DNA from: Oscillatoria acuminata PCC 6304
Lineage (GTDB): Bacteria > Cyanobacteriota > Cyanobacteriia > Cyanobacteriales > Laspinemataceae
Length of the DNA stretch: 64,000 bases
Assembly (NCBI RefSeq): GCF_000317105.1
Contig: NC_019693.1
Coordinates: forward strand, 3,967,227-4,031,226
Reading direction: 5' to 3'
Shown: one piece after another, positions 10,094 through 64,000 of the stretch
Layout of the letters: each line of letters begins with the position of its first letter
Position numbering within the stretch: the stretch's first letter is position 1
The notes under the pieces: generated by a model
The model's database searches: none
Told to the model about the DNA's origin: nothing
Seen by the model: only the letters and a program-made list of their open reading frames with translations
Made by a program: the position numbers and the translations under genes

Positions 10094-10106
10094 ATTGGGG
10101 TGGTGA

Positions 10107-15704: not shown

Positions 15705-15785
15705 GATGGTTTGGATAGGATAATTTAAGGGGGATAACCAGCGAGAATTATATCCCGCTGGTTGGTTGAAGAATGAGGCGTTCGG

Positions 15786-21566: not shown

Positions 21567-21597
21567 GAGTTTTAGGGGATAAATACTGGTATGTGGA

Positions 21598-21656
21598 ACA
21601 CCCGCAGGCTGAAGCCTGGGGCTATACGGACGAAGCCTGCCTGCGCAGGCTGAAGA
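21598..21656. repeat. REP-like double-hairpin element, reverse orientation ('cccgcaggctgaagcctggggctatacggacgaagcctgcctgcgcaggctg')
   Basis: Reverse-complement homolog of 21766-21818 and 43683-43740, with compensatory stem changes. Confidence 0.6.
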
Positions 21657-21765
21657 GTACAATAGGTTTTTAACAACCGAATTGGGATGATTTATTTTTT
21701 GAAATATCCTAACTAGACTGGGCCATAATACCCAATTCGGCTGTTAACAGTTAGCTTTCTCTATT

Positions 21766-21818
21766 AGCCCGCGCAGGCGGGCTTTGTCTGTGTAGCCCCA
21801 CCCTTTAGGGTGCGGTTT
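21766..21818. repeat. REP-like double-hairpin element ('agcccgc gcag gcgggct' + 'gccccaccc ttta gggtgcgg'), forward orientation
   Basis: About 90% identical to 43685-43737. It forms an inverted pair with 21598-21656 across the NRPS intergenic region. Confidence 0.65.
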
Positions 21819-21819
21819 T

Positions 21820-25269: not shown

Positions 25270-25293
25270 GGCAATGCCTTGCCCTTCTGCGCT

Positions 25294-28383: not shown

Positions 28384-28427
28384 CGGTAAGGGATAAAATG
28401 ACTAATTTAGGCTAAATTTAAGGGAGC

Positions 28428-28566
28428 ATCTCAATTTTGCCTACCAACCGAATTGACCTCTCCCCCCTACCCCCCTCCCCTGCAAGGGGAGGGGGAAATT
28501 TATGTCTTTCTCCCCCTTCCCTCGTAGGGAAGGGGGCTGGGGGGTTAGGTCTCTTTTCAAAATTGA
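28428..28566. repeat. MITE-like element copy ('gacctctcccccctacccccctcccctgcaaggggaggggg...cccccttccctcgtagggaagggggctggggggttaggtctcttttcaaaattgagatc')
   Basis: Same family as 150-330, 51000-51150 and 63225-63430. Its right end supplies the last codons and stop of the decarboxylase gene. Confidence 0.65.
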
Positions 28567-30188: not shown

Positions 30189-30241
30189 GATAGTGACTCA
30201 ATCCAAATACTTTTACAAAGGGTTAGGGTTGTGATGAGGGA

Positions 30242-33559: not shown

Positions 33560-33590
33560 TGCACCCTCTCCTAAATGTTACCTGATACCC

Positions 33591-42900: not shown

Positions 42901-45900
42901 CCGGAATCCCCGAATTTTGACTTGATTATCGACCCGTCCGATATATTCTAACGTGCCATCCGGACGATACCGCGCTACATCCCCTGTTTTATAGAGTTTC
43001 ACCTCGGGATTTTCGGCAAAAGGACTGGGGATAAATTTCTCAGAGGTTAATTCCGGCTGATGCAGATATCCGGCTGCCAATCCTGCGCCTCCAATATATA
43101 AATCTCCGGGGATGCCGACAGGAACTGGCTGCAATGCCTGATCCAAGAGGTAAATTTGGGTATTCGCGACTGCCCGTCCGATGGAAACAGTCTCCTCCCC
43201 CGGAGTCACCGGATACAGAGTAGACCAAATGGTAGTTTCCGTCGGTCCATATAAATTCCAGACGGAACCTGCCCGATTACACAACTCATCCGCCAGCAGT
43301 CGCGGCAGGGCTTCCCCGCCACAGAGGATTTTAAGCTGCGGGCGACCCTGCCATCCGCTTTCGATTAACATCCGCCAAGTTGATGGCGTTGCTTGCATGA
43401 CAGTTATCTGTTGCGAGTCCAAAAGTGAGGCTAATTGCTGCCCGTCTGTCGCCACTTCGCGACTGGCAATAATCACGCAAGCGCCTACGGTGAGGGGGAG
43501 AAACAGTTCTAATGCGGCAATATCAAAAATCAGCGTTGTCACCGCTAACAGGCGATCGCCACAAGTTATGCCCGGTTCCCGCTTCATCGAAGTGAGAAAA
43601 TTAACCACACTCCGATGCCGCAATTGCACCCCTTTCGGTCGCCCCGTAGACCCCGACGTATAAATAATATACGCCAAATCCTCAGCCCGCGCAGGCGGGC
43701 TTTGTTCGTATAGCCCCACCCTTCCAGGGTGCGGGTTCATAGCATCCAAACACACCACCCGCGCCTGATGACTGGGTAACGTCGAAATCAGATGCTGCTG
43801 AGTGAGAATCACCCCCGCTTGGGAATGTTCCAGCATATATTGAAGCCGATCGCCCGGAAGTGCAGGGTCCAGAGGAAGATAGGCAGCCCCAGATTTGAGA
43901 ATTCCCAACAGTCCCACCAGCATTTCTAACGAGCGATCGACGTAAAGCGCCACTGCCTGATTCCGTTGTACGCCTATGGATTGCAAATATTGGGCTAACT
44001 GACTGGCGCGATCGCTCAACTCCTGATAAGTGAGAGATTGCCCCTCAAAAACTGCCGCCACTGCATCCGGGGTTTTGGCAACTTGCGCCTCAATTAATTC
44101 ATGAATACAGGCAGTTTCTGGATACTCTGCTGCCGTATCATTCCACTGGTGCAAGAGTTGTGCCTGTTCATTTGCAGTCAACATCGGCATTTCCGATATC
44201 CGGGCGTCGGGACCGGCAACCGCACTTTCTAGCAGGGTTTGGAAATGTCCTAGCATTCGTGAGATTGTCCCTGCCTCGAACAAATCTGTACTATATTCCA
44301 GAGTCGCCAACAATCCTTGACGGGTTTGGGCGATCGCCAGGGTGAGGTCAAACCGGGATTTTTTGCTGTCCAACTCCAGCAGATTTAACCGCAATCCGGG
44401 CAGTTCCAACTCCGCCATTGGGGCATTCTGGAGGACAAACATCACCTGAAAAATTGGACTATGACTCAAAGTGCGACTGGGCTGTAATGCTTCCACAAGT
44501 TGCTCAAAGGGCAAGTCTTGATGAGCATAAGCCCCCAAAGCTACCTCACGCACCCGTCCCATCAACTCCCGAAAACTGGGGGTTCCGGATAAGTCCGTTC
44601 GTAAGACAAGGGTATTGACAAAACAGCCGATTAGCCCTTCAATTTCCCCACGATTCCGGTTAGCGATGGGAGTTCCCACCCGAATATCACTTTGTCCACT
44701 ATAGCGATACAACAAGGTTTGGAACGCCGCCAGGAGGGTCATATACAGAGTCACGCCGGATTGCTGAGAGAGGGTGTTTAGGGCCTCACTCAGTTCAATC
44801 GGCAGGGTGAGAGATTGGGTCGCCCCCCGGAAGGATTGCACCCCTGGACGAGGGTAATCCGTGGGCAAGTCTAATCCGGGCAAATCTCCCCCCAGTTGGC
44901 GCTTCCAATAGTCCATCTGCGCCCCTAACCTGGCCTGATTCAGCCATTGGCGCTGCCACAGGACAAAATCGGCATATTGTACTGCCAGGGCGGGCAAGGG
45001 GGAAATCCTGCCGGTAGAATAGGCACCGTATATCGTCCCTAATTCCTGAATCAGCACCCCCATTGACCAGCCATCGGAAACAATGTGATGAATGACAAAC
45101 AGGAGAATAAATTCATCCGGTTGTAATTGGAACAGGGTCAAGCGGACTAGGGGAGGCTGGGTTAAATCAAAGGGTTGTTGCACCCAGGCAACTGCTAGGG
45201 ATGGTACTTGGGACTCCTCACAGGAAATGACCGGCAGGGTAATTCTCACCTCGGGCATAATTTCCTGGATGACGCAGCCCTCGCCCTCGACAAACCGAGT
45301 CCGTAAGGTGTCGTGACGGCGAGCAATTTCGTTAAAACTCTCTTCTAGGGCGGGAATATTTACCTGACCCTGTAATCGCACAGCAGCCGCACTGTTATAG
45401 GTTCCGGGTTCCAATCCTTCCAAAAACCATAACCGTTCCTGAGAGAAGGAAAGGGGAACTGCGCCGGTTTTGGATACTGGAACGATCTCCGGTATATCCA
45501 GCTTTTCTCCTGCGGCAAGGGAGGTTTCGATGCAGTCGGCTAATTGTGCGAGAGTGGGGGTTTCAAATAGACTCCGCAGGGGCAACTCTACCCCAAATGT
45601 ATCTCGAATTTGAGAGACGAGTTGGGTTACCAGGAGAGAATGTCCCCCGACTTCAAAGAAATTATCTTCTCTGCTAATCGGATGGCGCTGCAACAGTTGC
45701 GCCCAAATCCCTGCCAGCAGTTCTTCTACGGGAGTTCGGGGTGCGATCGCCTCAGACTGACCCTGTAATTCCTCCGGTGTGGGAAGTGCCTGCCGGTTCA
45801 CCTTGCCATTGGGGGTGAGAGGGAAACTGTCCAAGACAGCGAAGGTGCTAGGAATCATGTAATCTGGTAAGCGTTGACTGGCAAACTGCCGCAACTCCCG

Positions 45901-48663: not shown

Positions 48664-48722
48664 TCTCCGATTCTAGTAAATGCACCCCTAAGCGGGGTAA
48701 ACGTAGCGTATAAAGTTCTGTA

Positions 48723-49775
48723 TTACAAGTTTTGGGAAAACAATTCTGACATCCCGACAACGATTTTCCTGGGTCCTGAAAAGGGTTGTCGTCCGTGGGC
48801 TGTCAGCATATTATCTAACATTAGAATATCTCCGGTTTCCCAGGGAAATAATACCGTTTCTGCCCGATAAGCGGCGCGGATTTCTTCTAAAACCTCGGGT
48901 TCAATGGGTGACCCGTCTCCATAATAAGTATTATGGGGTAAATCCTCTTCAGAAAATGCCTTTAATAACGCCTCTCGAATCGGGGGTTCCAAGGTGGATA
49001 CATGGAAGAATACCCCATGATTAAACCAGACAGCTTCCCCGGTAATAGGATGGTGGGCGATCGCCTGCCGGACTTGACGGGTACGCAGGCGATTTTGCCC
49101 TTTCCATTCCCACTCTATCCCATTTTTGCGACAAAAATCTACCACTTGGGAGGTATTTTCTGTTTGGAATACAGTTTGCCAGGGCAACCCAAACCCATCG
49201 CCAAAATTGCGGACATACATCACCTGTTTTTCAGCAAAACGGCGGCGAATTTCAGGGGGAATCCGTTGCAATAACTTGCGGGTGTCGGCGATAGGAGTTT
49301 CGCCTCCTTCTGTGGGGGGAATCAAACAGCAAAAGAAGATTTTTAAGGGCCAACTGGCTGCATAAGAGTTCTCGCTATGGAGAAAAATGGTTTGATTCGC
49401 GGGATGATCCGTCGAGGTATAAATATTACCATTGACGGGACTCCGAGGGGATGAGCGATCGCGATAATCCAGCAACTCCCCCGATACGGTTTGAATCAAC
49501 TCCTCAAACTCTTCCACATCCCGAATCCCAAAGTTTCGGAATAGAATGCCCCCATGTTTTTGCAACGCCGTTTGAATAAAATCTCGGTTTGTATTCGCCC
49601 AAACGGTTAAATTCACCCCCTCGATTTGGGGCTGAATTAACAAAGGTAAAGACTGGTCCAAAAACATCGGCTTGGCTTCGACCAATTTGGTCGTTTCCAC
49701 GCTAACGGAACGCCGTTTGACGGCACCGAATGTCGTTAGATTAGGAGTGGAGGAGTCTGAAAATTTCATGACCAC
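48723..49775 (-). CDS. Standalone TauD/TfdA-family Fe(II)/2-oxoglutarate dioxygenase (SyrP-like amino-acid beta-hydroxylase)
   Basis: 350 aa, paralogous to the fused C-terminal domain of the 2913-aa NRPS ('GGILFRNFG', 'HSENSYAASWPLKIFF', 'GGETPIADTRK', 'LDNMLTAHGRQPF'). Confidence 0.8.
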   Translation of the reverse strand: MVMKFSDSSTPNLTTFGAVKRRSVSVETTKLVEAKPMFLDQSLPLLIQPQIEGVNLTVWANTNRDFIQTALQKHGGILFRNFGIRDVEEFEELIQTVSGELLDYRDRSSPRSPVNGNIYTSTDHPANQTIFLHSENSYAASWPLKIFFCCLIPPTEGGETPIADTRKLLQRIPPEIRRRFAEKQVMYVRNFGDGFGLPWQTVFQTENTSQVVDFCRKNGIEWEWKGQNRLRTRQVRQAIAHHPITGEAVWFNHGVFFHVSTLEPPIREALLKAFSEEDLPHNTYYGDGSPIEPEVLEEIRAAYRAETVLFPWETGDILMLDNMLTAHGRQPFSGPRKIVVGMSELFSQNL

Positions 49776-49782: not shown

Positions 49783-52700
49783 CTAAACTGTACGGGTTGC
49801 TTGCCGTTTGGTGAGCTTTAGTTTTTGTAAGCTAACGGCTTGTAAAGATTCGGCTTGGCGTTGTCGTTGTTGATGGCAACTGCCATAAACGTTTAATTCA
49901 GTTAATCGCAGGTGAGGTTGAGTCACAACTTGGTGCAATACCCCTTCATAATCCTCAACCATCTGGGCTATTGTCTCTGGGTTAAATAAATCCGTTTGAT
50001 ACTCAAAGGACCCTTTAAATCCCGCTGGATCGTCCCAAATACTGACCTTTAAATCAAACTTGGAAGTCCCTAAATCAACTTCCTGGGACTCAAAACTGAG
50101 TCCAGGAATTTCCACCGTGGGAATCGGCGCGTTTTGCAGAATAAACATCACCTGGAATAACGGATTATAACTTAAATTTCGTTCCGGCTGCAACTCTTCC
50201 ACTAATTTATCAAACGGTAACGCCTGATGAGCATAAGCCCCCGATGCTACAGCCCGGACTCGCTGCAAAACTTCTCTAAAATTGGGATTTCCTGACAAAT
50301 CAGTTCGTAAAACGAGAGTATTAATAAAAAAGCCAATTAATCCTCTAGTTTCAGGCTTTTCCCGCCCTGCTACCGGCGAACCGACTGCAATATCCTCTTG
50401 CTGACTGTAACAGCATAACAGGATTTTAAACCCTGCCAACAGGGTCATAAATAAGGTGACTTCTTCTTGGCGATTCAACTCCCGAACTGCCTCAGACAAG
50501 GTGGGAGAAAATTGGAAAAAGCACTTTTGACCGGCAAAGGTGGGAATTTCAGGACGAGGGCGATCGCAAGGTAAGTTCAACCGAGATAAATTCCCCTGAA
50601 GTTGCTGCTTCCAGTAATCTAATTCCCGTTGTAATCCCTCAGTTTGTAGCTGTTGCCGTTGCCATGCCGCAAAATCAGCATATTGGATGGGTAAGTTTCC
50701 TAAATTCGGGGCTTGACCCGCTGTCAATGCTTCATAAATGGCGGCAATTTCGCGCACCATGACCCCAACGGACCAGCCATCAGAAATAATATGATGGAGG
50801 ACAATCGATAAACAATGGCGCTGGTCCTGAACTCGGAATAAATGGACTCGCAATAAAGGCGCTTGCGAGAGATTAAACGGGGTTTTAGCTTCCTGTTGCA
50901 ACCGGGTGGATACTTCCGTTTCCAATACCTCAGAGATTGGCAATTTTACCGTTACCGGGAGCATCTCTATTTGTCCTAAAAACAAGTGGGACCTCTCCCC
51001 CCTGCCCCCCTCCCCTACAAGGGGAGGGGGGAATAAATCTCTTTCTCCCCCTTCCCTCTTAGGGAAGGGGGCTGGGGGGTTAGGTCTTTCTCCCCCTTCC
51101 CTCGCAGGGAAGGGGGCTGGGGGGTTAGGTCTCTTTTCAAAGTTGAAATCCCCCCCCATCACCGAGGCTTGAATCTGCTGAATGGGCCGCCCTTTAACTT
51201 CTGGAAATCCAGTCCTCAACCCTTCGTGACGGTTCACCAATTCTTGGAGGCTGGACTCTAAAATCTTGGTGTCCAGTTTCCCGACAATATTCAGGCAAAA
51301 TGCCACATTATAAAACGGATTTCCCGGTTCCAAGCGGTCCAAAAACCATAACCGTTCCTGGGCGAGTCCCACGGGCAATTCTGCCGTGCGAGAAACAGGC
51401 TCAATTGGGTCAATCGGCTGCTGAGTTTCCAGCAGATTGTCCGCTTTTTGGGCCAACTCTACTAAACTGATACCCTCGAAAAAGTCTACTACATCAATGT
51501 TGACACCCCATGCTAATTCAAGCTGATTTTTGAGGTCAAATGCCATCAACGAATCGAGTCCAAACCGACTGAGGGGCTGTTTCGGGTCAATGTCTACAAC
51601 CGAAACATTCAATAAGCTAGAGACTCGGCTGGTTAAATCAGCAATTAGCTCAGTTTGTCGCTGTTCCGGTGCAAGGTTGAGTAGACTTTCTCGGTCCCAA
51701 TTTTTCTCTAATTTCCCGGACATTGATGACGCTACCAGACTTTGATCCACCACTTGCAGTTCACCATTAAGGAAGCGATCGCGACAGGCACGGCGTTGAA
51801 TTTTTCCACTCGAAGTTTTGGGAATCGTACCCGGTTTAATCAGCACAACTCCATACACTTGCACCTCAAATTCCTCTGCGACTGCCTGCCGAATAGCGGC
51901 GATCGCCTCGGATAAATTCGGTTTAGCGCGAAACTCCAATTCTTGCACCACCACCAGCCTTTCTTCCCCTGCCACCTCCACGGTAAAAGCAGCAGTTCCC
52001 GTCAACCGAAATGCCCGATGACTCGACTCCGTAGCGCGTTCGATATCCTGGGGATATAAATTACGTCCCCGAATCAGAATTAAATCCTTAACCCGACCCG
52101 TAATATACAGTTCCCCATCCTCTAGGAAACCCAAATCCCCGGTGCGTAAAAATGGCCCTTCTCCACTGTCAGCCAGGAATGCTTGAAATGTATGACGACT
52201 CTCTTCCGGACGATTCCAATAGCCTTGGCAGACACTGGGTCCAGACACCCACACTTCTCCCACTTCGTTCCCTGCACAACGAGCACCCGTTTCCGGATGG
52301 GCGATCGCAATCTGCATATCCGGAACCGCAGAACCACATCCCACCAAGGTTACAGCATTTTCCCCTGAGTCCGAATCGGTAATCTGATTCCGTTCAAATG
52401 CACCTTTATCGATCGCCTTCCAAGGATAGGGAACCGATGTCATACTCCCCGACACCATCAACGTTGTTTCTGCCATCCCATAACAGGGATAAAAGGCTTC
52501 CGGTTGAAATCCACAGTCCGCAAAGGCTTCCTGAAATCGCACTAACGTCTCATGGCGAATCGGTTCAGCGCCATTAAATGCCACCTGCCACCGACTCAAA
52601 TCCAGGGTTGCCTTTTGTTCCGGCGTAATCTTACTCACACATAAGTCATAGGCAAAATTAGGTGCACCACTTGTCGTCCCCCCATAATCGGAAATCGCTT

Positions 52701-53475
52701 TCAGCCAACGATAGGGACGTTGTAGAAACGAAGCCGGAGACATTAACGTGCAGGGAAAACCCCCATAAAGGGGCTGTAAAATCCCCCCAATCAGTCCCAT
52801 ATCGTGATACGTTGGTAGCCACGAAATAAATTGACTCTCAGGATGATGATCCATCACTTTGTAGGTAATTGCCGCATTATGCAGCAAGTTCCCCTGGGAT
52901 ACCATCACCCCTTTTGGCGTTCCCGTAGAACCCGAGGTGTATTGCAAAAAAGCTAAACTGTCTGACGTAACCCCCGGATCCTGCCATTGGCTGTCCAACG
53001 CTGGATCTAACCGATCCGTACACACCCATTGCAACCCACTCCCTGCTGTTTTTTCGCTCAACAAGGATTGAACTTGGGCTGCAATTTGGCTGGTAGTGAG
53101 GGCGACTGCTGCTTTTGCATCTGCCAAGACTGCCAAAATTCTCGGTGTATTACGCTGATTTCGGGGCGGATAGGCAGGAACGGCAACAACTCCGGCATAC
53201 AGGCAGCCGAAAAAGGCAATCAAATAGTCGAGTCCCGGAGGATACAGCAGTAATGCCCGTTCCCCACCCAACCCCATTGCTTGCAATTGAGCGGCGATCG
53301 CCCGACTGCCTCGGTCTAATTCCCGATAGGTAAGGGTTTCCCCAAGGATTTCCCCATCGATTAAAAACCGAAAAGCGAGATTATCCGGCTGTTGGATTGC
53401 TCTCCCGCGCAGGATTTCTACAAAAGTAGAACAACGGCGATCGAGTTGTGGAACGGTGTACTCTGCGTAATTCAT
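49783..53475 (-). CDS. Lipoinitiation protein: fatty acyl-AMP ligase (FAAL) - ACP - condensation domain
   Basis: FAAL N-terminus 'LTYRELDRGSRAIAAQLQAMGLGGERALLLYPPGLDYLIAFFGCLYAGVVAVPAYPP', 'YTSGSTGTPKGV'. ACP 'LSRFGLDSLMAFDL'. C domain 'LWFLDRLEPGNPFYN', 'RHEGLRTGF', 'HHIISDGWS'. The C domain carries a ~55-aa Pro/Gly-rich insertion encoded by a repeat element. Confidence 0.85.
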   Translation of the reverse strand: MNYAEYTVPQLDRRCSTFVEILRGRAIQQPDNLAFRFLIDGEILGETLTYRELDRGSRAIAAQLQAMGLGGERALLLYPPGLDYLIAFFGCLYAGVVAVPAYPPRNQRNTPRILAVLADAKAAVALTTSQIAAQVQSLLSEKTAGSGLQWVCTDRLDPALDSQWQDPGVTSDSLAFLQYTSGSTGTPKGVMVSQGNLLHNAAITYKVMDHHPESQFISWLPTYHDMGLIGGILQPLYGGFPCTLMSPASFLQRPYRWLKAISDYGGTTSGAPNFAYDLCVSKITPEQKATLDLSRWQVAFNGAEPIRHETLVRFQEAFADCGFQPEAFYPCYGMAETTLMVSGSMTSVPYPWKAIDKGAFERNQITDSDSGENAVTLVGCGSAVPDMQIAIAHPETGARCAGNEVGEVWVSGPSVCQGYWNRPEESRHTFQAFLADSGEGPFLRTGDLGFLEDGELYITGRVKDLILIRGRNLYPQDIERATESSHRAFRLTGTAAFTVEVAGEERLVVVQELEFRAKPNLSEAIAAIRQAVAEEFEVQVYGVVLIKPGTIPKTSSGKIQRRACRDRFLNGELQVVDQSLVASSMSGKLEKNWDRESLLNLAPEQRQTELIADLTSRVSSLLNVSVVDIDPKQPLSRFGLDSLMAFDLKNQLELAWGVNIDVVDFFEGISLVELAQKADNLLETQQPIDPIEPVSRTAELPVGLAQERLWFLDRLEPGNPFYNVAFCLNIVGKLDTKILESSLQELVNRHEGLRTGFPEVKGRPIQQIQASVMGGDFNFEKRPNPPAPFPAREGGERPNPPAPFPKREGGERDLFPPPLVGEGGRGERSHLFLGQIEMLPVTVKLPISEVLETEVSTRLQQEAKTPFNLSQAPLLRVHLFRVQDQRHCLSIVLHHIISDGWSVGVMVREIAAIYEALTAGQAPNLGNLPIQYADFAAWQRQQLQTEGLQRELDYWKQQLQGNLSRLNLPCDRPRPEIPTFAGQKCFFQFSPTLSEAVRELNRQEEVTLFMTLLAGFKILLCCYSQQEDIAVGSPVAGREKPETRGLIGFFINTLVLRTDLSGNPNFREVLQRVRAVASGAYAHQALPFDKLVEELQPERNLSYNPLFQVMFILQNAPIPTVEIPGLSFESQEVDLGTSKFDLKVSIWDDPAGFKGSFEYQTDLFNPETIAQMVEDYEGVLHQVVTQPHLRLTELNVYGSCHQQRQRQAESLQAVSLQKLKLTKRQATRTV
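50989..51152. repeat. MITE-like element (partially duplicated) lying in-frame within the condensation-domain coding sequence
   Basis: 'gacctctcccccctgcccccctcccctacaaggggagggggg...cccccttccctcttagggaagggggctggggggttaggtc' x2 '...tcttttcaaagttgaaatc'. It closely matches the intergenic copy at 28428-28566. It translates to 'EKRPNPPAPFPAREGGERPNPPAPFPKREGGERDLFPPPLVGEGGRGERS' between the C2 and C3 (HHxxxDG) motifs. Confidence 0.7.
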
Positions 53476-53937: not shown

Positions 53938-55212
53938 ATGCGTACTTTTCTGATTGTTTGGCTGGGTCAGTTGGTCTCTACCTTCGGGAGTCGAATGACC
54001 AACTTTGCCCTAATTGTTTGGACTTGGGAAGTGACCGGATCAGCCACTGCCCTGGGTTTGGTGACCGTCTTTACTCAACTGCCCGGTTTAGCAGTCGCCT
54101 TATTTGCCGGGGCGCTCATCGATCGCAGCGATCGCAAAGTCGCGATCATTGTGGGAGATTCCATTGCCGCACTTTCAACCTTGACCATTTTATTGTTAGC
54201 GGCAGTCGGGCAACTGCAACTCTGGCATCTGTTCGTGATTAATGGCATCAATGGCATTTTCGGGGAAATCCAACAATTGGCGTATTCGGCGTCAGTGAGT
54301 TTGATGGTTCCGAAACAGCACTATGTCCGGGTCAGCAGCCTCAAATCCATGCTGCATTACGCCCCAAATATTTTATCCCCCGCCTTTGCCGGTGCCCTGT
54401 ACCCCATTACCGGACTGGTGGGAATTGCCGCTATCGACTTACTCACCTTTGCGGTGGGGGTGAGTACGGTGCTTTTGGTTAAGATCCCCCAGCCTCCCCG
54501 AAGTGAGTTAACGTCTAATCAGCCGAAACTCTGGCAGGAACTCACCTTGGGCTGTCGTTATATTATGGCCCGTTCCTCCTTAATGGGATTTTTCGCTTTA
54601 GAGTTACTCTTTTGGTTTGGGCATGATTTGGGCGCAGTGATGCATCGGTCTACTATTTTAGCCCGGACCGATGGGAATGCCGAAGTGCTCGGGATGGTGA
54701 GTGCAGCAGCGGGAATTGCCGGAATTATTGGGGCAGTTGCTTTGACCGGGTGGGGTGGCCCCAAGCGCCGGATTCAGGGATTTTTAGGGTCAGCGATCGC
54801 CGTGGGGGTGAGTAAAACCCTATTTGCCCTCGGTCAATCCCTATCAATTTGGATCCCCATGCAGTTATGCTCCTCCCTAAATTTTCCCCTGTTAACCAGT
54901 TCCAGTACCGCCATTTGGCTGGAAAAAACCCCCCCGGAAGTCCAGGGACGGGTGTTTGCCGCCCAATCCTTCGGCATGGGAGTGGTCTCAACTGTGGCAA
55001 CGGCAGTCGCCGGTCCCTTAGCCGACGGCTTCTTTGAACCCGCCATGCGACCCGGTGGCGTCTTAAGCCCCTGGTTTGGCAGCCTCTTCGGCACAGGTCC
55101 CGGTTCCGGGATGGCCCTGTTATATGCCGTCACCTCCCTGGGTTTGATTCTCGTCGGAATTCGGGGATACTGTTGGCCCCTGGTGCGCCAGATAGAAAAG
55201 AGTAGCGTCTAG
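53938..55212 (+). CDS. MFS transporter, EntS-like (candidate siderophore exporter)
   Basis: 424 aa, ~12 TM segments. N-terminus 'LIVWLGQLVSTFGSRMTNFALIVW...LFAGALIDRSDRK' resembles the enterobactin-exporter MFS subfamily. Confidence 0.6.
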   Translation: MRTFLIVWLGQLVSTFGSRMTNFALIVWTWEVTGSATALGLVTVFTQLPGLAVALFAGALIDRSDRKVAIIVGDSIAALSTLTILLLAAVGQLQLWHLFVINGINGIFGEIQQLAYSASVSLMVPKQHYVRVSSLKSMLHYAPNILSPAFAGALYPITGLVGIAAIDLLTFAVGVSTVLLVKIPQPPRSELTSNQPKLWQELTLGCRYIMARSSLMGFFALELLFWFGHDLGAVMHRSTILARTDGNAEVLGMVSAAAGIAGIIGAVALTGWGGPKRRIQGFLGSAIAVGVSKTLFALGQSLSIWIPMQLCSSLNFPLLTSSSTAIWLEKTPPEVQGRVFAAQSFGMGVVSTVATAVAGPLADGFFEPAMRPGGVLSPWFGSLFGTGPGSGMALLYAVTSLGLILVGIRGYCWPLVRQIEKSSV

Positions 55213-55460: not shown

Positions 55461-55545
55461 TGACTTGGCTAATGCAAATTACTATCAATAACTGAGATGA
55501 ATTGCAAAAACTTCTATTGTATAGATTGGGACTGAGGAAAGGAAA

Positions 55546-58185
55546 TTGAGAGTTGAATCGTTCTTGCCCGGAGTATTGTTATCGGGTGCAACTGTATTGG
55601 TATTGGCTTCTCCAGCGACTGCCCAAGTCGTAGAAGTAACCGGAGTGCGAGTGGAATCTACCTCCACTGGGTTACAAATTATCTTGGAAACAACCGGCGA
55701 TCGCGTTCCCCAAGTCTTTACCTCTAGTTTTGGTGAGACCACAATTGTTGACATTACCAACACTCAACTGCGATTGACCCAGGGGAGTTCCTTTCGCCAG
55801 GACAACCCTGCCGAGGGAATCGAGTCAATCGCCGTCACGAGTTTAGATTCCAACAGCATTCGCCTCACCGTTACCGGAACTAGCGCAATGCCAATGGTAC
55901 AGGCAACTGACCCGGCGAATCCACTCACCTTTGAAGTGATGACCTCGACGGATGTTGCCGAGGACCCCTTCCCAGATAGTGAACCCGAAGCCGTTCCTGA
56001 ACCTGAAACGCCTACCACATCAGAGACTCAAGAAGACTCCCTTCCAGAGATTGAACCCGAAGTGGTTCCCGACCCTGAAACGCCTACCACACTAGAGACT
56101 CAAGCGGATCAGGAACTGGATATCCTAGAAATTATTGTCACCGCCACGCGAACGGCTGAACGGTTGATTAAAGTGCCGCGATCGATCACCGTCCTTGATC
56201 GCCAAGATATTGATGAGCAGACCACAGTTTCCACAGACTTGGGGGATGTTTTAGCCAAAACAGTCCCTGGATTGGGACCCCCGACCAGTGGCAGTTCCGC
56301 GAGATCCATTGTCCAAAACTTACGGGGTCGAGAGGTTGCCATTTTAATCGATGGCGTTCCCCAAACCTCCAATTACGGGCTGACTCGGGACCTTCGGATG
56401 ATCGACCCCAACATCGTAGAACGAGTGGAAGTAGTCCGAGGACCCAGCGCAATTTATGGAAGTCAGGCAACCGGGGGAGCCATTAATATCATTACCCGAA
56501 GCCCGACACAAGATGCCTTTAGCATTGATACCGGAGTCAGCTTTACAGGTTCTCTCACCCATTTATCCGATAGTATCAGCAACCGGCAATATTTCGGACT
56601 TTCGCAAAAAGAGGGAATCATTGACTATAGCGTATCTGTCGTCCGGGAAGATAATGGGGCAATTTTTGATGCGTCTGGCGATCGCATTCCCGACGTCGGT
56701 GGGGGTGGGACACTTGAGGCCCGAGAATACAGCGCTTTGGGTAAATTGGGATTAGATATCACCGATACCCAACGCCTGCAACTCACCGCCAACTATTTTG
56801 TGGGAAGGCAAGACACCAGCTATATTTCTGATCCCATTGTTCTAGAGCTAGAGGGTCGGCCAAAAGCCCGTGCTTTGAGGGCAGTTAACGGCAATTATGA
56901 AGGCACCGTTGATGCCGGAGACGAAAATTTGGTCATCAGCTTGCGCTATACCAATGATGACATTCTCGGGAGTCAATTACAAGCCCAAACCTACTACCAG
57001 GAATATACCTCAGCCATCGGTGGTACGGATTTTCGCGGTGGATTTTTTGATATCATCGCCCGTCAGCGTGCTCAAGGAGACAAATGGGGTGGGCAACTTC
57101 AAGTAGAAACACCCCTCACCTCATCAGGAAGCGCTCGTCTGCTGTGGGGAGTAGATTATGTCGATGAGAACAATGTAGCCCCTTTTGATGAATTCGACCC
57201 TGTGGCGTTTGATGAGCGCGGTGTGTTTAGAAAAATCGCCACCCGGACTTTTGTTCCGGCTTATAGTCTCAGCCAACTCGGCTTATTTGCTCAAGGTAAC
57301 TGGGATCCCACGGACTGGTTGAGACTCACTGGAGGGGTACGTCATGAACGAATTGCCCTGAGTGTTGACGATTACACCTCGTTTTTTGGAAGAGACATTG
57401 AAGGGGGCGATGTAGACTTGAACGGCACCGTATTTAATGCGGGTTCAGTGGTCAATTTAACCCCTGAGTTTGGGATATTTGCCAACTTTGCTCAAGGGTT
57501 TTCAATTCCTTCCCCTGGGGGAGTTCTTCGCAATCCTCCCGAGGATTTCAACAATGTTGGAAGGGATCTAACCATTACGGAACCCATCAAGGTGAACAAC
57601 TATGAAATCGGGGTGCGTGGACTCTGGCCACAAATCCAGGTTTCTTTGGCTGGATTTTATAACTACTCGGATTTAGGGGCAGGGTTTATCTTTGTGGATG
57701 GGATTTCTCGGCTGGTCCGTGCGCCGGAACGGAGGTATGGGGTTGAGGCAACGGCAGATTGGCAACCGGGATGGAATTTGAGCTTAGGGGGAACTCTAAG
57801 CTGGACCGAAGGAGAAAGTGACCTGGAAGATTCGGGAGATTATCTGGCGGCTTCCAGCTTTGATATTACTCCGTTAAAAGCCACAGCTTACCTCGAACAT
57901 CAAACGACGCCAAGCTGGTCAAATCGCTTGCAATTTCTCTACTCCGGTAACCGCAACCGTGCCTTTGATGATGAGGTAGACAACACTGCAATTGATGCCT
58001 ACTTTCTGGTAGACTATGTTGGCAGCATCCAACTTGGGGCAGGCACTTTAAACTTTGGGGTCGAAAATCTATTAAACGCCCAATATTTTACGGCTCAATC
58101 TCAAGTGTTGGCGGGCTTTGTTGGTACCTCTAATACCGCAGGAGAGGGGCGGACGTTAAGAATTGGGTATTCGTTGAGGTTTTAA
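55546..58185 (+). CDS. TonB-dependent outer-membrane siderophore receptor with N-terminal extension domain
   Basis: Signal peptide 'LLSGATVLVLASPATAQ'. N-terminal ~90-aa extra domain. Two tandem Pro/Glu-rich ~22-aa repeats. Plug 'IIVTATRTAERLIKVPRSITVL'. Beta-barrel ending in the aromatic C-terminus '...RIGYSLRF'. TTG start. Confidence 0.85.
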   Translation: MRVESFLPGVLLSGATVLVLASPATAQVVEVTGVRVESTSTGLQIILETTGDRVPQVFTSSFGETTIVDITNTQLRLTQGSSFRQDNPAEGIESIAVTSLDSNSIRLTVTGTSAMPMVQATDPANPLTFEVMTSTDVAEDPFPDSEPEAVPEPETPTTSETQEDSLPEIEPEVVPDPETPTTLETQADQELDILEIIVTATRTAERLIKVPRSITVLDRQDIDEQTTVSTDLGDVLAKTVPGLGPPTSGSSARSIVQNLRGREVAILIDGVPQTSNYGLTRDLRMIDPNIVERVEVVRGPSAIYGSQATGGAINIITRSPTQDAFSIDTGVSFTGSLTHLSDSISNRQYFGLSQKEGIIDYSVSVVREDNGAIFDASGDRIPDVGGGGTLEAREYSALGKLGLDITDTQRLQLTANYFVGRQDTSYISDPIVLELEGRPKARALRAVNGNYEGTVDAGDENLVISLRYTNDDILGSQLQAQTYYQEYTSAIGGTDFRGGFFDIIARQRAQGDKWGGQLQVETPLTSSGSARLLWGVDYVDENNVAPFDEFDPVAFDERGVFRKIATRTFVPAYSLSQLGLFAQGNWDPTDWLRLTGGVRHERIALSVDDYTSFFGRDIEGGDVDLNGTVFNAGSVVNLTPEFGIFANFAQGFSIPSPGGVLRNPPEDFNNVGRDLTITEPIKVNNYEIGVRGLWPQIQVSLAGFYNYSDLGAGFIFVDGISRLVRAPERRYGVEATADWQPGWNLSLGGTLSWTEGESDLEDSGDYLAASSFDITPLKATAYLEHQTTPSWSNRLQFLYSGNRNRAFDDEVDNTAIDAYFLVDYVGSIQLGAGTLNFGVENLLNAQYFTAQSQVLAGFVGTSNTAGEGRTLRIGYSLRF

Positions 58186-58186: not shown

Positions 58187-59191
58187 TTGCAGATGAGGGA
58201 AGCAGTCGCCAGGGTACTCTATTCCGGGTTATTAATCACCGTTTTAATGGCCTGTCGGGGGACTTTTGTCCCTCACTATTCCGTGGGAAATCGATCCGGG
58301 GTTAACCCAGCCTTACCCACACAGCGGGTTCAAACGTTTACCGATGTCACCGAAACTGTGGTACAGGTGAGGGAATCTCCTGAGCGCATAGTTTGCTTAC
58401 ATTTAATGTGTATTGACATCTTGGCGGAACTCGATCTCGAACCCGTGGGGATGAATGGGGGTTTAGTAGAGATGGCCATGAATTCAGTGTACTTTGGCGA
58501 TCGCGCTCGTAGTTTCGGCCAAATTGGTGGTCACGGGGAACCGAATTTAGAACAGTTACTCATCCTAGAACCGGATGTAACCATCGGACATCAGATCCAG
58601 CTTTCCCATCAACGTCAAACCCTCGAAACGATTACCCCCCTGTATCTGATGAAGGTGGAAACCTACACCGAGGCAGTCTCCAATCTCCAGGCAGTGGGTA
58701 AAATGTTGGGGTCCGAAGAAAAGGCCGAAGCAGCAGCTTGGCACTTTTTAGATAAATTCAGGGCTTATCGGGCCAAATCCCCGCGAACTCACAGCGTGAT
58801 GGTAATGCAAGGGAGCCCGAGTAGATATTTTGTTGCTACAAACCAATCCCTCGTGGGTTCCACCCTGGCCGAACTCACACCCTATCCCTGGCGTCTGGGG
58901 TATAACTCGGCGAGCGCTATTAATTGGACAACTTATTCCTTTGAGGAAATCCTCTCCGTCGATCCGGATTTCATTTTCATCATCAACAGTTCCCGCGCCC
59001 CGGATTTGATTTCGGGGTTAAAAACCCATCGTCTGTGGCAAACGCTCACCGCAGTAAAACGGAGTCAGGTCTTTGCCCTGGAGGAAGACCAAATTGGCGG
59101 GTTGTCGAGTGGCACTCGGTCCCTGGGCCAGTTACTGGATGACATTATGACCACCATGTATCCTGACGTTTTTCCGGAACCCTTACCATGA
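58187..59191 (+). CDS. Periplasmic Fe3+-siderophore binding lipoprotein (FecB/FhuD family)
   Basis: Lipobox 'VLMAC'. 334 aa. ATGA overlap with the downstream permease gene. Confidence 0.75.
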   Translation: MQMREAVARVLYSGLLITVLMACRGTFVPHYSVGNRSGVNPALPTQRVQTFTDVTETVVQVRESPERIVCLHLMCIDILAELDLEPVGMNGGLVEMAMNSVYFGDRARSFGQIGGHGEPNLEQLLILEPDVTIGHQIQLSHQRQTLETITPLYLMKVETYTEAVSNLQAVGKMLGSEEKAEAAAWHFLDKFRAYRAKSPRTHSVMVMQGSPSRYFVATNQSLVGSTLAELTPYPWRLGYNSASAINWTTYSFEEILSVDPDFIFIINSSRAPDLISGLKTHRLWQTLTAVKRSQVFALEEDQIGGLSSGTRSLGQLLDDIMTTMYPDVFPEPLP

Positions 59192-60216
59192 GTGCGACTC
59201 ACCCGGACCCCCTGATCCTGAGAGCTTCCCGATTTTGGGTGGCACTGATCTCACTGACGGCAATGCTTCTGGCCCTTGGCCTCCTGTCTCTGCAATTGGG
59301 AAAACCGACCCTCAACTTATCCCAGTTGTGGGAGATTGCCATTTCTGGACAAGGGGAACCGATTCAGCGCTTGGTGTTTTGGGAAATCCGCTTGCCCCGC
59401 CTGATTCTCGGCACCCTCACTGGCGCAATCTTAGCCCTGGCCGGAGTCCTCCTCCAGAATGCCTTGCGGAATGTTCTGGCAGGGCCGGAATTGTTGGGAG
59501 TTCAGTCGGGGGCAGCAGCAGTGATGGCGGCGATCATTGTCTTACAACTACCTGTGCCTATTTCGGTCTATCCCTTACTGGCGTTGGTCGGGGGTATGGT
59601 GGGAGGGGCGATCGTCTTAATCTCCTCCAAACGCACATCAGACCCGGTCCGGCTAGTCTTGATTGGTGCTGCCATGACCGCCCTATTGAACTCCATAACG
59701 ATCGCCTTAATTAGTCTAGGGACTGCCAACAATGTCAGTCTGCTTTTTTTATACTTATTGGGTTCTCTCGCCGGTCGCACTTGGGACGAAGTGCAGATCG
59801 TGGTATCTTGGGCCATTGTGGGCATTCCCCTCGCCCTGCTGTGCGCCCGTCCCCTGAATATCTTGCAACTGGGGGATGAACTGGCTGAAGGACTGGGGTT
59901 AAAAGTGTTACCCACCCGCTTTGCCATTGGGGTATTGAGTGTCGTCCTGGTCGCCCCGGCGATGGCTACCTGTGGCCCGATCGCCTATATCGCCTTACTC
60001 GCCCCCCACCTCGCCCGCAATCTCTTAGGCACCACCGATGCAAAGCAAGTTCTGGTCCTGGCGATTCCCATCGGTGCGCTCTTGCTCGTGGGTGCAGATT
60101 TGGTGGCAAGGGAAGCGTTTGCACCGATGGAAATACCTGTGGGAGTCTGGACCACCCTCCTCGGTGGACCGGCTTTATTAGTGCTGCTGCAAAAACAAAT
60201 TCGGAGTCGAGGATAA
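59188..60216 (+). CDS. Fe3+-siderophore ABC permease (FecCD family)
   Basis: 342 aa polytopic protein. 'GAALAGVLLQ...LLGVQSGAA' FecCD signature region. Confidence 0.8.
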   Translation: MSATHPDPLILRASRFWVALISLTAMLLALGLLSLQLGKPTLNLSQLWEIAISGQGEPIQRLVFWEIRLPRLILGTLTGAILALAGVLLQNALRNVLAGPELLGVQSGAAAVMAAIIVLQLPVPISVYPLLALVGGMVGGAIVLISSKRTSDPVRLVLIGAAMTALLNSITIALISLGTANNVSLLFLYLLGSLAGRTWDEVQIVVSWAIVGIPLALLCARPLNILQLGDELAEGLGLKVLPTRFAIGVLSVVLVAPAMATCGPIAYIALLAPHLARNLLGTTDAKQVLVLAIPIGALLLVGADLVAREAFAPMEIPVGVWTTLLGGPALLVLLQKQIRSRG

Positions 60217-61283
60217 TGACGGTCTTACCCGGAAGGAGAATTCAGACCCCGCAAGCGGGTCAACTCACATTTGCTCAGAGCATGACTGCGGTCATCCTCG
60301 TTCTGGGGGTCGTCTTTGTCTTGCACGTTTGTGTTGGCAGTGGTACCCTTTCCCCCGAGGAAGCCGTCGCCGCTTTGGTGAATCACCCGCTCCAAGCGGT
60401 ACATGGCCGGATTGTCTGGGAATTGCGCGTCCCCAGGGCAGCAGTTGCTACCCTGGCCGGGTCTTTATTTGGACTCTCCGGGGCCATGCTCCAGGCAATT
60501 ATCCGCAACCCTTTAGCAGAACCCAGTCTCACGGGGGTGACCTCTGGGGCGGTATTGTTTTTAATCCTCTCCCTGACGTTCTTACCTTTTGGGGAAATTC
60601 CTCCCATCTGGTTCCCGGCGATCGCATTGGTGGGAGGATGTCTGACCAGCAGTATGGTGTACTTCCTGAGTCGGCAACCCAATCGCCCGAGTGACCCTTT
60701 ACAACTGGTCTTAAATGGGGCCGTTGTAGCGGCGATCGTTCAATCCATTAACTCTTTACTATTATTAAGAGATCAAGAATCCCTCGGCATCATTTTATTC
60801 TGGCTGGTTGGCTCCTTGCACGGGCGCACCTGGGTGCATTGGCAGGGGATTTGGGCAGTCGCCCTGATTGCCTTACCCTGTGGACTCGCCTGCGCCCGAG
60901 TTGCCAATCTGCTCCATCTCGGCGATGATGTTGCCGCCGGATTGGGAGTCCCCGTGGGTCAAGCGAGAGCCACTTTATTTTTTATTGCGGTTTGGTTAAG
61001 TGCCACGGCGGTTTCTGTCGTTGGTGCCGTCGGATTCATTGGCTTAATCGGCCCCCATTTAGCCCGTCAATGGGTCGGAAACGATGCCCGTCGCTTGTTT
61101 CCCCTGAGTACCGCCATTACTGCCCTGTTACTGTTAGGATCTGATTTATTCGCCCAAGTGCTCACCCTCACCTTTGGCAATAATAGAGCCACCCTCCCGG
61201 TTGGGGCTGTTACCGCCCTGTTAGGTGCACCCTTCTTTTTATATCTAGTTTTAAGAAAAAACCCGATGGGTTCCAGATCATAA
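60216..61283 (+). CDS. Fe3+-siderophore ABC permease (FecCD family), second subunit
   Basis: 355 aa, paralog of 59188..60216 ('LAGSLFGLSGAMLQAIIRNPLAEPSLTGV'). Confidence 0.8.
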   Translation: MTVLPGRRIQTPQAGQLTFAQSMTAVILVLGVVFVLHVCVGSGTLSPEEAVAALVNHPLQAVHGRIVWELRVPRAAVATLAGSLFGLSGAMLQAIIRNPLAEPSLTGVTSGAVLFLILSLTFLPFGEIPPIWFPAIALVGGCLTSSMVYFLSRQPNRPSDPLQLVLNGAVVAAIVQSINSLLLLRDQESLGIILFWLVGSLHGRTWVHWQGIWAVALIALPCGLACARVANLLHLGDDVAAGLGVPVGQARATLFFIAVWLSATAVSVVGAVGFIGLIGPHLARQWVGNDARRLFPLSTAITALLLLGSDLFAQVLTLTFGNNRATLPVGAVTALLGAPFFLYLVLRKNPMGSRS

Positions 61284-61285
61284 TT

Positions 61286-62116
61286 ATGTCAGTAAACTCC
61301 CCGATTCTCGCCGCTGAAGATTTACAAGTTGGTTACAGTCACCAGACTATCCTCAAGAACCTGTCCATCGAGATTGAACGGGGGAGAGTTACGGCATTAG
61401 TCGGACCCAATGGGTCGGGCAAATCTACCCTTTTAAAAACTTTAGCTCGATTGTTGTCCCCGAGTAGCGGACAAGTTTATTTGAATGGGGTGGCACTCAC
61501 GCGCCTTGCCACCCGAGATATCGCCCGTCAAATGGCTATTCTGCCTCAAAATCCAGTCGCCCCTCCGGGATTAACGGTCGCTGAATTAGTGGAACAGGGC
61601 CGGTTTCCTCATGTGGGACCTTTAGGGATGTTACGTCGCCAGGACCGGGAGGCGATCGCCGAGGCCCTGACTCTTACCGCCATGACCGAATTTGCCCATC
61701 GCCGTCTGGATAATCTCTCCGGAGGAGAACGACAACGGGCCTGGATTTCTCTAGCTTTAGCTCAAGAAACGCCTTTATTATTATTAGATGAACCGACGAG
61801 CTTTTTAGATATTGGACATCAGCTAGAAGTGTTAGAAATTGTCCGTCACCTGAATCGCGATCGGGGGATGACAATTATTTTAGTCCTCCATGACTTAAAT
61901 CAAGCCGCCCGTTACAGCGATCGCATGGTGGTTCTCAAACGGGGACGAATTATAGCCGATGGAACTCCCCGTCGCGTCTTAACCCCGGACCTTTTAGCCG
62001 AAGCCTTCGGAGTCCGCGCCCGAGTCACCCTGGAACCGGAAACCGGAATTCCCTTATGTTTTCCCTATGCCTATATTGGCAATGCTCCCCTGCCTGTAGA
62101 TGCTCCTCAATCTTAG
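61286..62116 (+). CDS. Fe3+-siderophore ABC transporter ATPase (FecE/FhuC family)
   Basis: Walker A 'GPNGSGKST', ABC signature 'LSGGERQR', Walker B 'LLLLDEPTSFLD', H-loop 'LHDL'. Confidence 0.9.
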   Translation: MSVNSPILAAEDLQVGYSHQTILKNLSIEIERGRVTALVGPNGSGKSTLLKTLARLLSPSSGQVYLNGVALTRLATRDIARQMAILPQNPVAPPGLTVAELVEQGRFPHVGPLGMLRRQDREAIAEALTLTAMTEFAHRRLDNLSGGERQRAWISLALAQETPLLLLDEPTSFLDIGHQLEVLEIVRHLNRDRGMTIILVLHDLNQAARYSDRMVVLKRGRIIADGTPRRVLTPDLLAEAFGVRARVTLEPETGIPLCFPYAYIGNAPLPVDAPQS

Positions 62117-63100: not shown

Positions 63101-63224
63101 AAAAATGATTCAGAGAAAGCAGCATTAGCCGGTTACCGAAGTTAAATTTTCGCTTCAGTTTTAAAATATTGTTATTTCTAATGGATGGTCTAACTTTCAA
63201 TTACATCAAACAGAAATTCAGAGA

Positions 63225-63430
63225 GCATCTCAATTTGAAAAAGAGACCTAACCCCCCAGCCCCCTTCCCTACAAGGGAAGGGGGAGAAAGACATAAATTC
63301 CCCCCTCCAGCAATAAAAAAATTTCCTTATTCTCCCTCTCCTCTTAGGAGAGGGCCGGGGAGAGGTGGGAAGGGGGGAGGGGGGTTAGGTCAGACTGGTT
63401 TTTAAGAAAAATTGAAATGCTCCCAAAAAT
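63225..63430. repeat. Complete MITE-like element with terminal inverted repeats
   Basis: Left 'catctcaatttgaaaaagagacctaaccccccagcccccttccctacaagggaaggggg', right 'ggggggaggggggttaggtcagactggtttttaagaaaaattgaaatgctccc'. Internal 'agcaataaaaaaatttccttattctccctct' shared with the copy at 150-330. Confidence 0.7.
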
Positions 63431-64000
63431 CCGCCTGTTTTTATTATTTTTATTCAGCCTAATTTTTGCAATGATTATCAGACCTGCTACTCCAGAAACT
63501 CATATAAAATCCCCAGAAATTCTTTGGGATACTTATGGAATTCCTCATATTTACGCGGCGAATCACCCCGAATTATTTTATGCCTTTGGTTGGGCGCAAA
63601 TGCAGAGTCATGGCAACTTACTGTTAAGATTATATGGTCAAGCCCGAGGACGGGGGGCAGAATATTGGGGAGAAACCTATTTAGAGGGCGATCGCTGGAT
63701 ACATACAATGGGAGTTCCCCGGCGCGCCCAAGACTGGTATAGGGCCCAAACCCCAGAATTTCGCACCTATCTCGATGCTTTTGCGGCTGGAATTAATGCC
63801 TACGCCGAACAACAGGGCGATCGCCTCGATGAAGCAGTCAAAGTCGTACTACCTGTCTCCGGAGTGGATATTTTAGCCCATCTTCAGCAAGTCCTCAATT
63901 TTACCTTTGTCGTCAATCCCGAAAAAATTAAGGAACTGCTACCAACCCCAGAAGAGACCCCGGGTTCCAATGCCTGGGCGATCGCACCAGCGCGATCGCA
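63417..64000 (+). CDS. Penicillin-amidase family Ntn-hydrolase (PvdQ / AHL-acylase-like), 3'-truncated by the window end
   Basis: Signal peptide 'MLPKIRLFLLFLFSLIFAMII'. Alpha-subunit motifs 'GIPHIYAANHPELFYAFGWAQMQSHGNLLL'. 'GSNAWAIAP' at ~aa 185 matches the autoproteolytic Ser-Asn N-terminus of the beta subunit. This frame is open to the end of the window and is not in the supplied ORF list. Confidence 0.7.
   Translation, partial: MLPKIRLFLLFLFSLIFAMIIRPATPETHIKSPEILWDTYGIPHIYAANHPELFYAFGWAQMQSHGNLLLRLYGQARGRGAEYWGETYLEGDRWIHTMGVPRRAQDWYRAQTPEFRTYLDAFAAGINAYAEQQGDRLDEAVKVVLPVSGVDILAHLQQVLNFTFVVNPEKIKELLPTPEETPGSNAWAIAPARS

Follow-up and report, generated by a model that had tools for sequence, protein, structure and literature searches.

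The gene described here begins at the ATG in position 63417 of a 64,000-nucleotide stretch of the Oscillatoria acuminata PCC 6304 genome (NC_019693.1, positions 3,967,227 to 4,031,226; hereafter the window) and runs off its end, beside a cluster of siderophore biosynthesis and transport genes. The reading we propose, and which we consider likely, is that this frame opens an intact gene coding for a secreted N-terminal nucleophile (Ntn) hydrolase acylase of the group typified by CcsQ of the cyanochelin C cluster, an enzyme predicted to remove, in the periplasm, the N-acyl tail of the lipopeptide siderophore made by the neighbouring cluster. The precursor would be exported through its N-terminal signal peptide and would cleave itself between Gly183 and Ser184 to generate the alpha and beta subunits, Ser184 (beta-1) then acting as the nucleophile with the aid of His beta-23, the backbone of Val beta-69 and Asn beta-243. 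The substrate would be the amide that joins the fatty acyl chain, installed by a protein combining a fatty acyl-AMP ligase (FAAL), an acyl carrier protein (ACP) and a condensation (C) domain (FAAL-ACP-C, 49783-53475), to residue 1 of the lipopeptide. A pump of the major facilitator superfamily (MFS) would carry the precursor, still acylated, over the inner membrane; in the periplasm the acylase would then cut off the lipid tail, and the product released would be a hydrophilic beta-hydroxyaspartate siderophore. We infer this substrate, this compartment and this timing, as well as a co-regulation with the uptake genes. The parts of the gene present in the window are the following.

63417..64000, + strand: 5' part of the acylase gene (codons 1-194 of 697), corresponding to AFY82821.1 / WP_015149454.1; PF01804 match, E=6.8e-30; 176/176 identity
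63417..63485, + strand: signal-peptide-like N-terminus MLPKIRLFLLFLFSLIFAMIIRP, a basic plus hydrophobic segment found in 80/80 relatives
63963..63971, + strand: Gly183-Ser184-Asn185, the predicted autoproteolytic site, Ser184 becoming the beta-1 nucleophile by alignment

On the + strand of the window, the 194 codons that lead from ATG 63417 to base 64000 contain no stop, as had been claimed in the sequence-only reading of this DNA, and the frame was missing from the list of open reading frames (ORFs) solely because the gene overruns the window, its end being expected near position 65510. A protein search with the orthologue of the closest relative (locus L001, 87% identity), followed by an exact-sequence match, led to AFY82821.1, annotated as "acylase" in O. 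acuminata PCC 6304, which counts 679 residues from Met19, or 697 if begun at ATG 63417, and is identical to window residues 19-194 at 176/176 positions. By exact sequence, four proteins of the window (the MFS transporter, the ABC ATPase, the Suc_Fer-like protein and the acylase) map to the 7.69-Mb chromosome of this strain. The internal stops or missing beta subunit that had been named as grounds for abandoning the assignment are not found: the product is uninterrupted and its beta subunit is entire, the window itself reaching from the signal peptide through the alpha subunit and the spacer to residue 11 of the beta subunit. The acylase is thus already annotated in GenBank, with a start that is probably wrong, Met19 (63471-63473) halving the signal segment kept by 80/80 relatives. 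Judged from the alignment, ATG 63417 is the better start because beginning at Met19 removes most of this conserved segment. The window also contains 88 copies of the HIP1 octamer GCGATCGC, which marks it as cyanobacterial.

The family assignment is clear. Residues 34-194 of the fragment match positions 3-180 of the 675 of the Penicil_amidase profile PF01804 with 105 bits, against a cut-off of 21.3, which is far beyond chance, and the orthologues of loci L001 and L003 (83-89% identical) match positions 3-673 of 675 with 455 bits. The N-terminus, MLPKIRLFLLFLFSLIFAMII, is made of a basic stretch and, after it, some 15 hydrophobic residues (top 13-residue Kyte-Doolittle mean, 3.1). The comparison set consisted of 80 species-representative loci, whose acylases are 57-87% identical, and an equivalent basic and hydrophobic segment stands in all 80, directly ahead of the conserved EILWD that opens the alpha subunit. 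'GSNAWAIAP' occupies residues 183-191, and Ser184 (codon TCC, 63966-63968) is aligned with the beta-1 nucleophile of glutaryl-7-ACA acylase. The signal peptide, the penicillin-amidase motifs and the self-processing Ser-Asn pair proposed from the sequence alone are all upheld in this way, the second by the very profile search that had been suggested. AFY82821.1 holds Ser beta-1, His beta-23, Val beta-69 and Asn beta-243, of which all but the serine lie past base 64000. ORFs of full length occur in 77/80 relatives, and among these 77 the columns Ser beta-1, Asn beta-2, His beta-23, Val beta-70, Asn beta-244 and Arg beta-274 (glutaryl-7-ACA acylase numbering) are invariant. The profile match, the precursor layout and the catalytic helpers, these last read on the GenBank product beyond base 64000, place the protein in PF01804 / MEROPS family S45, as a predicted secreted Ntn-hydrolase acylase of the penicillin-amidase family with its catalytic set intact.

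Within this family, the closest proteins of solved structure are the class I cephalosporin/glutaryl-7-ACA acylases (PDB 4e57, 3s8r, 1keh), which match AFY82821.1 over its full length with 615 bits and E ~1e-183, and this full-length match (E=1e-183) settles the acylase fold. PvdQ reaches 214 bits, and the L001 orthologue shows the same order of relatives. The gene had been called PvdQ-like, a term that stands as a functional analogy and falls as a statement of orthology, the cephalosporin acylases being nearer (615 vs 214 bits). On the NCBIfam model NF051460, the PvdQ equivalog with a cut-off of 950 bits, AFY82821.1 scores 242.5, the L001 and L003 orthologues 239 and the window fragment 30, and a PvdQ orthologue was rejected on these figures. 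PvdQ of P. aeruginosa (PDB 2wyb, 3sra) shares the superfamily and the catalytic logic, and it is a periplasmic enzyme encoded with siderophore genes that strips the fatty acyl chain from a siderophore precursor made by a nonribosomal peptide synthetase (NRPS), a function cited in the cyanochelin C preprint discussed below. It differs in that the alpha subunits hardly align (E ~1e-10 with the L001 orthologue) and in that the acyl chain of O. acuminata is loaded by a FAAL. The marinobactin acylases MhtA and BntA of Marinobacter likewise deacylate N-acyl beta-hydroxyaspartate peptide siderophores, as cited in the same preprint, but they are encoded away from the biosynthetic cluster, act late and optionally, and belong, according to it, to the lineage of PvdQ and the acyl-homoserine lactone (AHL) acylases. 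With the class I enzymes (PDB 4e57, 3s8r, 1keh, 1fm2, 1or0) AFY82821.1 has in common the precursor layout, Ser beta-1, His beta-23, the oxyanion Asn and Arg beta-274; it departs from them by a one-residue deletion before beta-33, by altered glutaryl positions and by its siderophore-cluster setting.

These altered positions bear on the substrate. We take the ligands of the glutaryl carboxylate in the class I enzyme to be Arg57-beta, Tyr33-beta and Tyr149-alpha, roles reportedly assigned by Kim and Hol in 2001, and Gln50-beta was tabulated with them. The 77 full-length relatives, aligned to the glutaryl-7-ACA acylase sequence, have the following residues in these columns.

Tyr149-alpha equivalent: 63906..63908, + strand, the codon of Phe164; Phe in 76/77 relatives; the sole pocket residue within the window
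Tyr33-beta equivalent: Trp in 77/77 relatives; Trp beta-32 in AFY82821.1
Gln50-beta equivalent: Leu in 77/77 relatives
Arg57-beta equivalent: Ala, Thr, Asn, Ser or Gly across the clade; Ser beta-56 in AFY82821.1

AFY82821.1 has Ser, Trp and Phe at 57-beta, 33-beta and 149-alpha, and the glutaryl ligands are lost. Such a pocket would no longer be suited to a short dicarboxylate and would be more apolar, which fits a fatty acyl chain rather than glutarate. Position 57-beta also figures as an active-site hot spot in a list drawn up for the class III enzyme (PMC6712217).

The second line of evidence is the genomic linkage. At least one homologue of the window's siderophore genes lies within 10 kb of the acylase in 62/80 loci, and FAAL or NRPS genes in 28/80, these being raw counts without a matched background-rate control. 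The linked loci belong to Oscillatoria, Tildeniella, Thainema, Phormidesmidales, Microcoleus, Calothrix and Nostoc, and their gene order differs, as in the following cases.

L001 (87% identity): arrangement as in the window, with the acylase at the head of the cluster
L003, Oscillatoria sp. HE19RPO: acylase at the tail of the cluster, convergent with its thioesterase end, behind uvrB, Uma2 and DUF2237 genes; the tail genes of the same cluster are 94% identical
L070, Tildeniella torsiva (9132-13105): a Sfp-type phosphopantetheinyl transferase (PPTase) gene, the acylase and a Suc_Fer-like gene, with gaps of 2-3 bp, operon-like
L069, Microcoleus: acylase between TonB/MORN genes and MFS, PepSY_TM and receptor genes

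The persistence of the linkage through these rearrangements argues for a functional tie between the acylase and the siderophore genes. In a neighbour-joining tree of 77 relatives, from which CcsQ is absent, the L001/L003 clade, taken as a proxy for the window gene, is sister to the acylases of Tildeniella, Phormidesmidales and Thainema, all of them cluster-linked. The adjacency of acylase and Suc_Fer-like gene recurs in L054, the order being opposite in the window and L001. In the metagenome-assembled locus L002 (80-83% identical, 10055-11356), the acylase frame ends 433 residues after the start of the match, by a pseudogene or an assembly frameshift.

The precedent for the proposed role is the cyanochelin C cluster of Myxacorys, a FAAL-NRPS cluster in which the Ntn acylase gene ccsQ stands beside the transport cassette and whose isolated siderophore lacks the predicted acyl group (bioRxiv 10.64898/2026.07.24.740629). 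According to this preprint, cyanochelin C occurs in spent medium almost solely in its deacylated form, acylases are present in 22/31 cyanochelin-like clusters, and about 47% of the acylases of the cyanobacterial siderophore-associated lineage ('cyanobacteriota 1') are cluster-linked. It also places CcsQ nearer to the glutaryl-7-ACA acylases than to PvdQ, and assigns AiiC, a characterised cyanobacterial AHL acylase, to the PvdQ/AHL-acylase lineage and not to that of CcsQ. The catalytic residues of CcsQ, Ser161, His183, Val229 and Asn403, correspond to a spacing of beta-1, 23, 69 and 243, identical in AFY82821.1, and both are cyanobacterial Ntn acylases with an N-terminal signal, set in a FAAL-NRPS cluster for a beta-hydroxyaspartate siderophore with a transport cassette alongside. 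The preprint uses four markers near the acylase for the CcsQ type: a FAAL, an NRPS, a beta-hydroxy-Asp interface domain and a TonB-dependent siderophore receptor. In O. acuminata, all four share the contig with the acylase and fall within 50 kb. On the other hand, the ccsQ gene is flanked by the NRPS genes, from which it diverges, and by the transport cassette, whereas the O. acuminata acylase lies downstream of the import genes and on their strand. The assembly lines are also unlike, that of O. acuminata having a polyketide synthase (PKS) module, a terminal reductase with an aminotransferase, and a first adenylation (A) domain without Asp235. Our results agree with the preprint on the cluster link, on the greater closeness to glutaryl-7-ACA acylases than to PvdQ and on the catalytic spacing, and a role in acyl-chain removal would fit both the linkage conserved among cyanobacteria and the CcsQ/cyanochelin C precedent. 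The arrangement is already described for cyanobacteria by this 2026 preprint, whose text and searched supplements do not mention O. acuminata; AFY82821.1 adds the example from this species.

The neighbouring cluster itself is composed as follows.

49783..53475, - strand: FAAL-ACP-starter C protein, predicted to install the N-acyl chain
53938..55212, + strand: MFS transporter (EntS/Mef-like), AFY82814.1, likely the siderophore exporter
55546..58185, + strand: TonB-dependent siderophore receptor with an N-terminal AMIN domain
58187..62116, + strand: the whole siderophore ABC importer, by profile matches
58187-59191, + strand: its periplasmic binding protein
59188-60216 and 60216-61283, + strand: its two FecCD permeases
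61286-62116, + strand: its ABC ATPase, AFY82819.1
62123..63100, + strand: Suc_Fer-like (thioredoxin-like ferredoxin) gene, AFY82820.1, counterpart of CctD of the cyanochelin B transport cassette
13335..49775, - strand: rest of the assembly line, with TauD; I-A-T-C-A(Gly)-T-C-TauD; I-A(Asp)-T-C-A(Ser)-T; C-A(beta-Ala)-T; a PLP (pyridoxal phosphate) decarboxylase; KS-AT-ACP; Cy-A-T; C-A-MT-T-R; a class III aminotransferase; and a type II thioesterase

The FAAL-ACP-C initiation protein and the adjoining uptake genes of the sequence-only reading are both recovered here, the former on the - strand (49783-53475) and the latter on the + strand between 53938 and 63100, from the exporter through the Suc_Fer-like gene, a gene set that is that of the cyanochelin B transport cassette cctA-F. 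The fusion of an AMIN domain to a TonB receptor has been reported as exclusive to cyanobacteria (a 2026 preprint). The starter C domain keeps an intact HHIISDG motif, and the fusion of FAAL-ACP to a normal C domain indicates that the acyl chain would be amide-linked to residue 1 and hence cleavable by an Ntn acylase. In cyanochelins A and B, a PKS builds the chain into the backbone, from which it cannot be cleaved (bioRxiv 10.64898/2026.07.24.740629).

The residue that carries the chain may be an unusual one. The first A domain (39922-48663, - strand) lacks Asp235, with an approximate code SSRDVAMGIK and NMFGQTE replacing NxYGPTE, the codes of all A domains having been read against a GrsA reference and being approximate. 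It is preceded by a C-like domain without HHxxxDG and by a stand-alone TauD gene (48723-49775), and this combination may mean that residue 1, which bears the acyl chain, is a beta-hydroxylated building block of an unusual kind. Two such C-like domains, with LPAVCADAQS and IPALCGDNGT in place of HHxxxDG, occur between 33591 and 48663 (- strand) and resemble each other most (31%). A TauD precedes both of them, stand-alone in one case and fused in the other, as is expected of the 'interface' domains of beta-hydroxylases; one of the two stands before an Asp-type A domain. At the other end (13335-21662, - strand), the assembly line finishes with a reductase domain, followed by the class III aminotransferase and the type II thioesterase, which suggests a reductive release and a transamination to a terminal amine. 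The PLP-dependent decarboxylase (28557-30188, - strand) adjoins the module with the beta-Ala-type code. Outside the siderophore region, two adjacent paralogues of MgtE-type magnesium transporters, of 511 and 466 residues, lie at 5122-8173 on the + strand.

Whether the acylase is co-transcribed with the uptake genes, as the last gene of their operon, depends on the spacer that separates them and on the repeat that it holds.

63101..63416, no strand: spacer of 316 bp, from the Suc_Fer-like stop to the acylase ATG
63245..63391, no strand: 147-bp palindromic element, with 25-nt end arms GACCTAACCCCCC.../...GGGGGGTTAGGTC and two inner hairpins
166-183, 612-750, 10113-10431, 28455-28551, 50990-51131 and 63245-63391: copies of the repeat, most of them intergenic, three in a row at 10113-10431

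The terminal arms of the 147-bp element are 92% complementary, its fold has z=-4.7, and 25 bp separate it from the ATG downstream. It is one of a dispersed palindromic family, with 13 matches to the end motif in the window against 0.13 expected, and this family is modular, being built of the ends GACCTAACCCCCC / GGGGGGTTAGGTC and of inner hairpins CCCCCTTCCCT..AGGGAAGGGGG. The copy at 28455-28551 stands between co-oriented biosynthetic genes, and that at 50990-51131 lies in frame within the FAAL-ACP-C gene, in the N-lobe of the starter C domain (about residues 781-830), to which it adds some 50 residues, KRPNPPAPFPAREGGERPNPPAPFPKREGGERDLFPPPLVGEGGRGERSH, absent from the homologues (for example, a 50-residue gap in L048). 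The element need not halt transcription, as these other copies between co-oriented genes and within a coding frame indicate. A scan of the spacer for promoter and terminator consensus found no terminator and no promoter on the + strand, the only promoter-like site being one on the - strand, and a scan for Fur boxes found no site of at least 12/19 in the spacer with the E. coli consensus, which may not apply to cyanobacteria. With the same consensus, the top Fur-box-like matches of the window are at 14213-14231 (15/19, between the thioesterase and aminotransferase genes) and 55468-55486 (14/19, upstream of the receptor gene). Little of the spacer is conserved in L001. Of the co-transcription claimed by the sequence-only reading, the common strand and the location downstream of the import genes stand; given the 316-bp gap, the 147-bp repeat and a position that is not conserved in L003, co-transcription with the uptake genes is no more than a possibility.

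Several observations weigh against the reading that we propose. No siderophore gene lies within 10 kb of the acylase in 18/80 relatives, and these unlinked relatives, together with the linkage of about 47% given by the preprint, mean that some members of the group probably have other roles. The membership of AFY82821.1 in the CcsQ group rests on shared properties, compared by way of the description of CcsQ rather than in a joint tree. For CcsQ itself, deacylation was deduced from the product structure and a model, in a preprint without in vitro assay, heterologous expression or knockout (bioRxiv 10.64898/2026.07.24.740629). In the cluster, the first A domain, lacking Asp235, gives no assignment for the acyl-bearing residue, and the repeat-derived insert of 50 residues might impair acylation by the starter C domain. 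Finally, with the repeat-bearing gap of 316 bp and a spacer of poor conservation, the acylase is at most a candidate member of an operon with the uptake genes.

Among the alternatives, the one that survives best, and which we find unlikely, places the enzyme on the side of uptake or recycling: the tail would be kept on a secreted, membrane-associated siderophore, and the acylase would trim the ferric lipopeptide on its way in, or acyl-siderophores of foreign origin, ahead of their capture by the binding protein and the ABC importer. The gene neighbourhoods lend it some appeal, the acylase following import genes on the same strand, and not biosynthetic genes, in the window and L001, repeatedly adjoining the transport cassette's Suc_Fer-like gene, in one order or the other, and being found in Microcoleus among TonB, PepSY_TM and receptor genes; the marinobactin acylases, as cited in the preprint, also act late and optionally on functional acyl-siderophores. 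The nearly complete deacylation of cyanochelin C in spent medium points instead to a maturation before or at secretion, the acylase lies outside the import cassette in L003 and in Myxacorys, and in L070 it comes directly after the PPTase gene, a biosynthetic accessory.

Less probable again is a general N-acyl amidase or a quorum-quenching AHL acylase, whose adjacency to siderophore genes would be incidental or would reflect shared regulation alone. Many members of the family are labelled 'acyl-homoserine-lactone acylase' in the source databases, labels that are automatic, and PvdQ is bifunctional according to the name of NF051460; the preprint, for its part, assigns AiiC to the PvdQ/AHL-acylase lineage instead of this one. 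The 18/80 relatives without a nearby siderophore marker and the repeat-holding gap of 316 bp that parts the acylase from the operon would also suit such an enzyme, but a chance adjacency is hard to reconcile with a linkage to FAAL/NRPS and transport genes that recurs in seven groups with varied gene orders.

That the gene is decaying or unexpressed, severed from its promoter by the repeat element, is very improbable. The palindrome does end 25 bp upstream of the ATG, in a spacer without promoter-like site on the + strand or Fur-box-like site, and the L002 orthologue has an ORF of only 433 residues; the O. acuminata gene is nonetheless of full length with every catalytic residue kept, the repeat is tolerated inside transcription units, both between co-oriented genes and in frame in the FAAL gene, and the break in L002, which is metagenome-assembled, may stem from an error of assembly. 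That the enzyme is truly a glutaryl-amide or beta-lactam (cephalosporin) acylase, as are its nearest relatives of solved structure, is scarcely credible, the glutaryl-ligand positions Arg57-beta, Tyr33-beta and Tyr149-alpha being Ser, Trp and Phe, small or apolar clade-wide, and the window annotation containing no beta-lactam-related gene in the neighbourhood.

The reading of the acylase as a CcsQ-type, tail-removing enzyme can be carried further, in a form that we offer as a doubtful conjecture. The enzyme, as a member of the cephalosporin-acylase lineage, would have a pocket rebuilt for long acyl chains, and the native role of that lineage would be the deacylation of lipopeptide siderophores instead of beta-lactam chemistry. 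In O. acuminata, the enzyme would act from the import cassette on an undescribed siderophore of the cyanochelin type, whose N-acylated residue 1, being loaded by the A domain without Asp235, would be beta-hydroxylated and non-standard. The lipid tail would switch the siderophore from cell-bound to diffusible or importable, and would be more than a biosynthetic handle.

In conclusion, the substitutions in the pocket suggest a possible natural job for the industrially used lineage of cephalosporin acylases, and O. acuminata PCC 6304, a culture-collection strain with a complete genome, provides a direct test bed for the CcsQ hypothesis. Genome mining is concerned too: the product of a FAAL cluster can be devoid of the acyl chain predicted for it, and would in that case escape screens based on mass. 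Furthermore, whether the lipid tail is kept or lost decides between a surface-bound and a diffusing siderophore, which bears on the competition for iron and on its sharing in mats and soil crusts.

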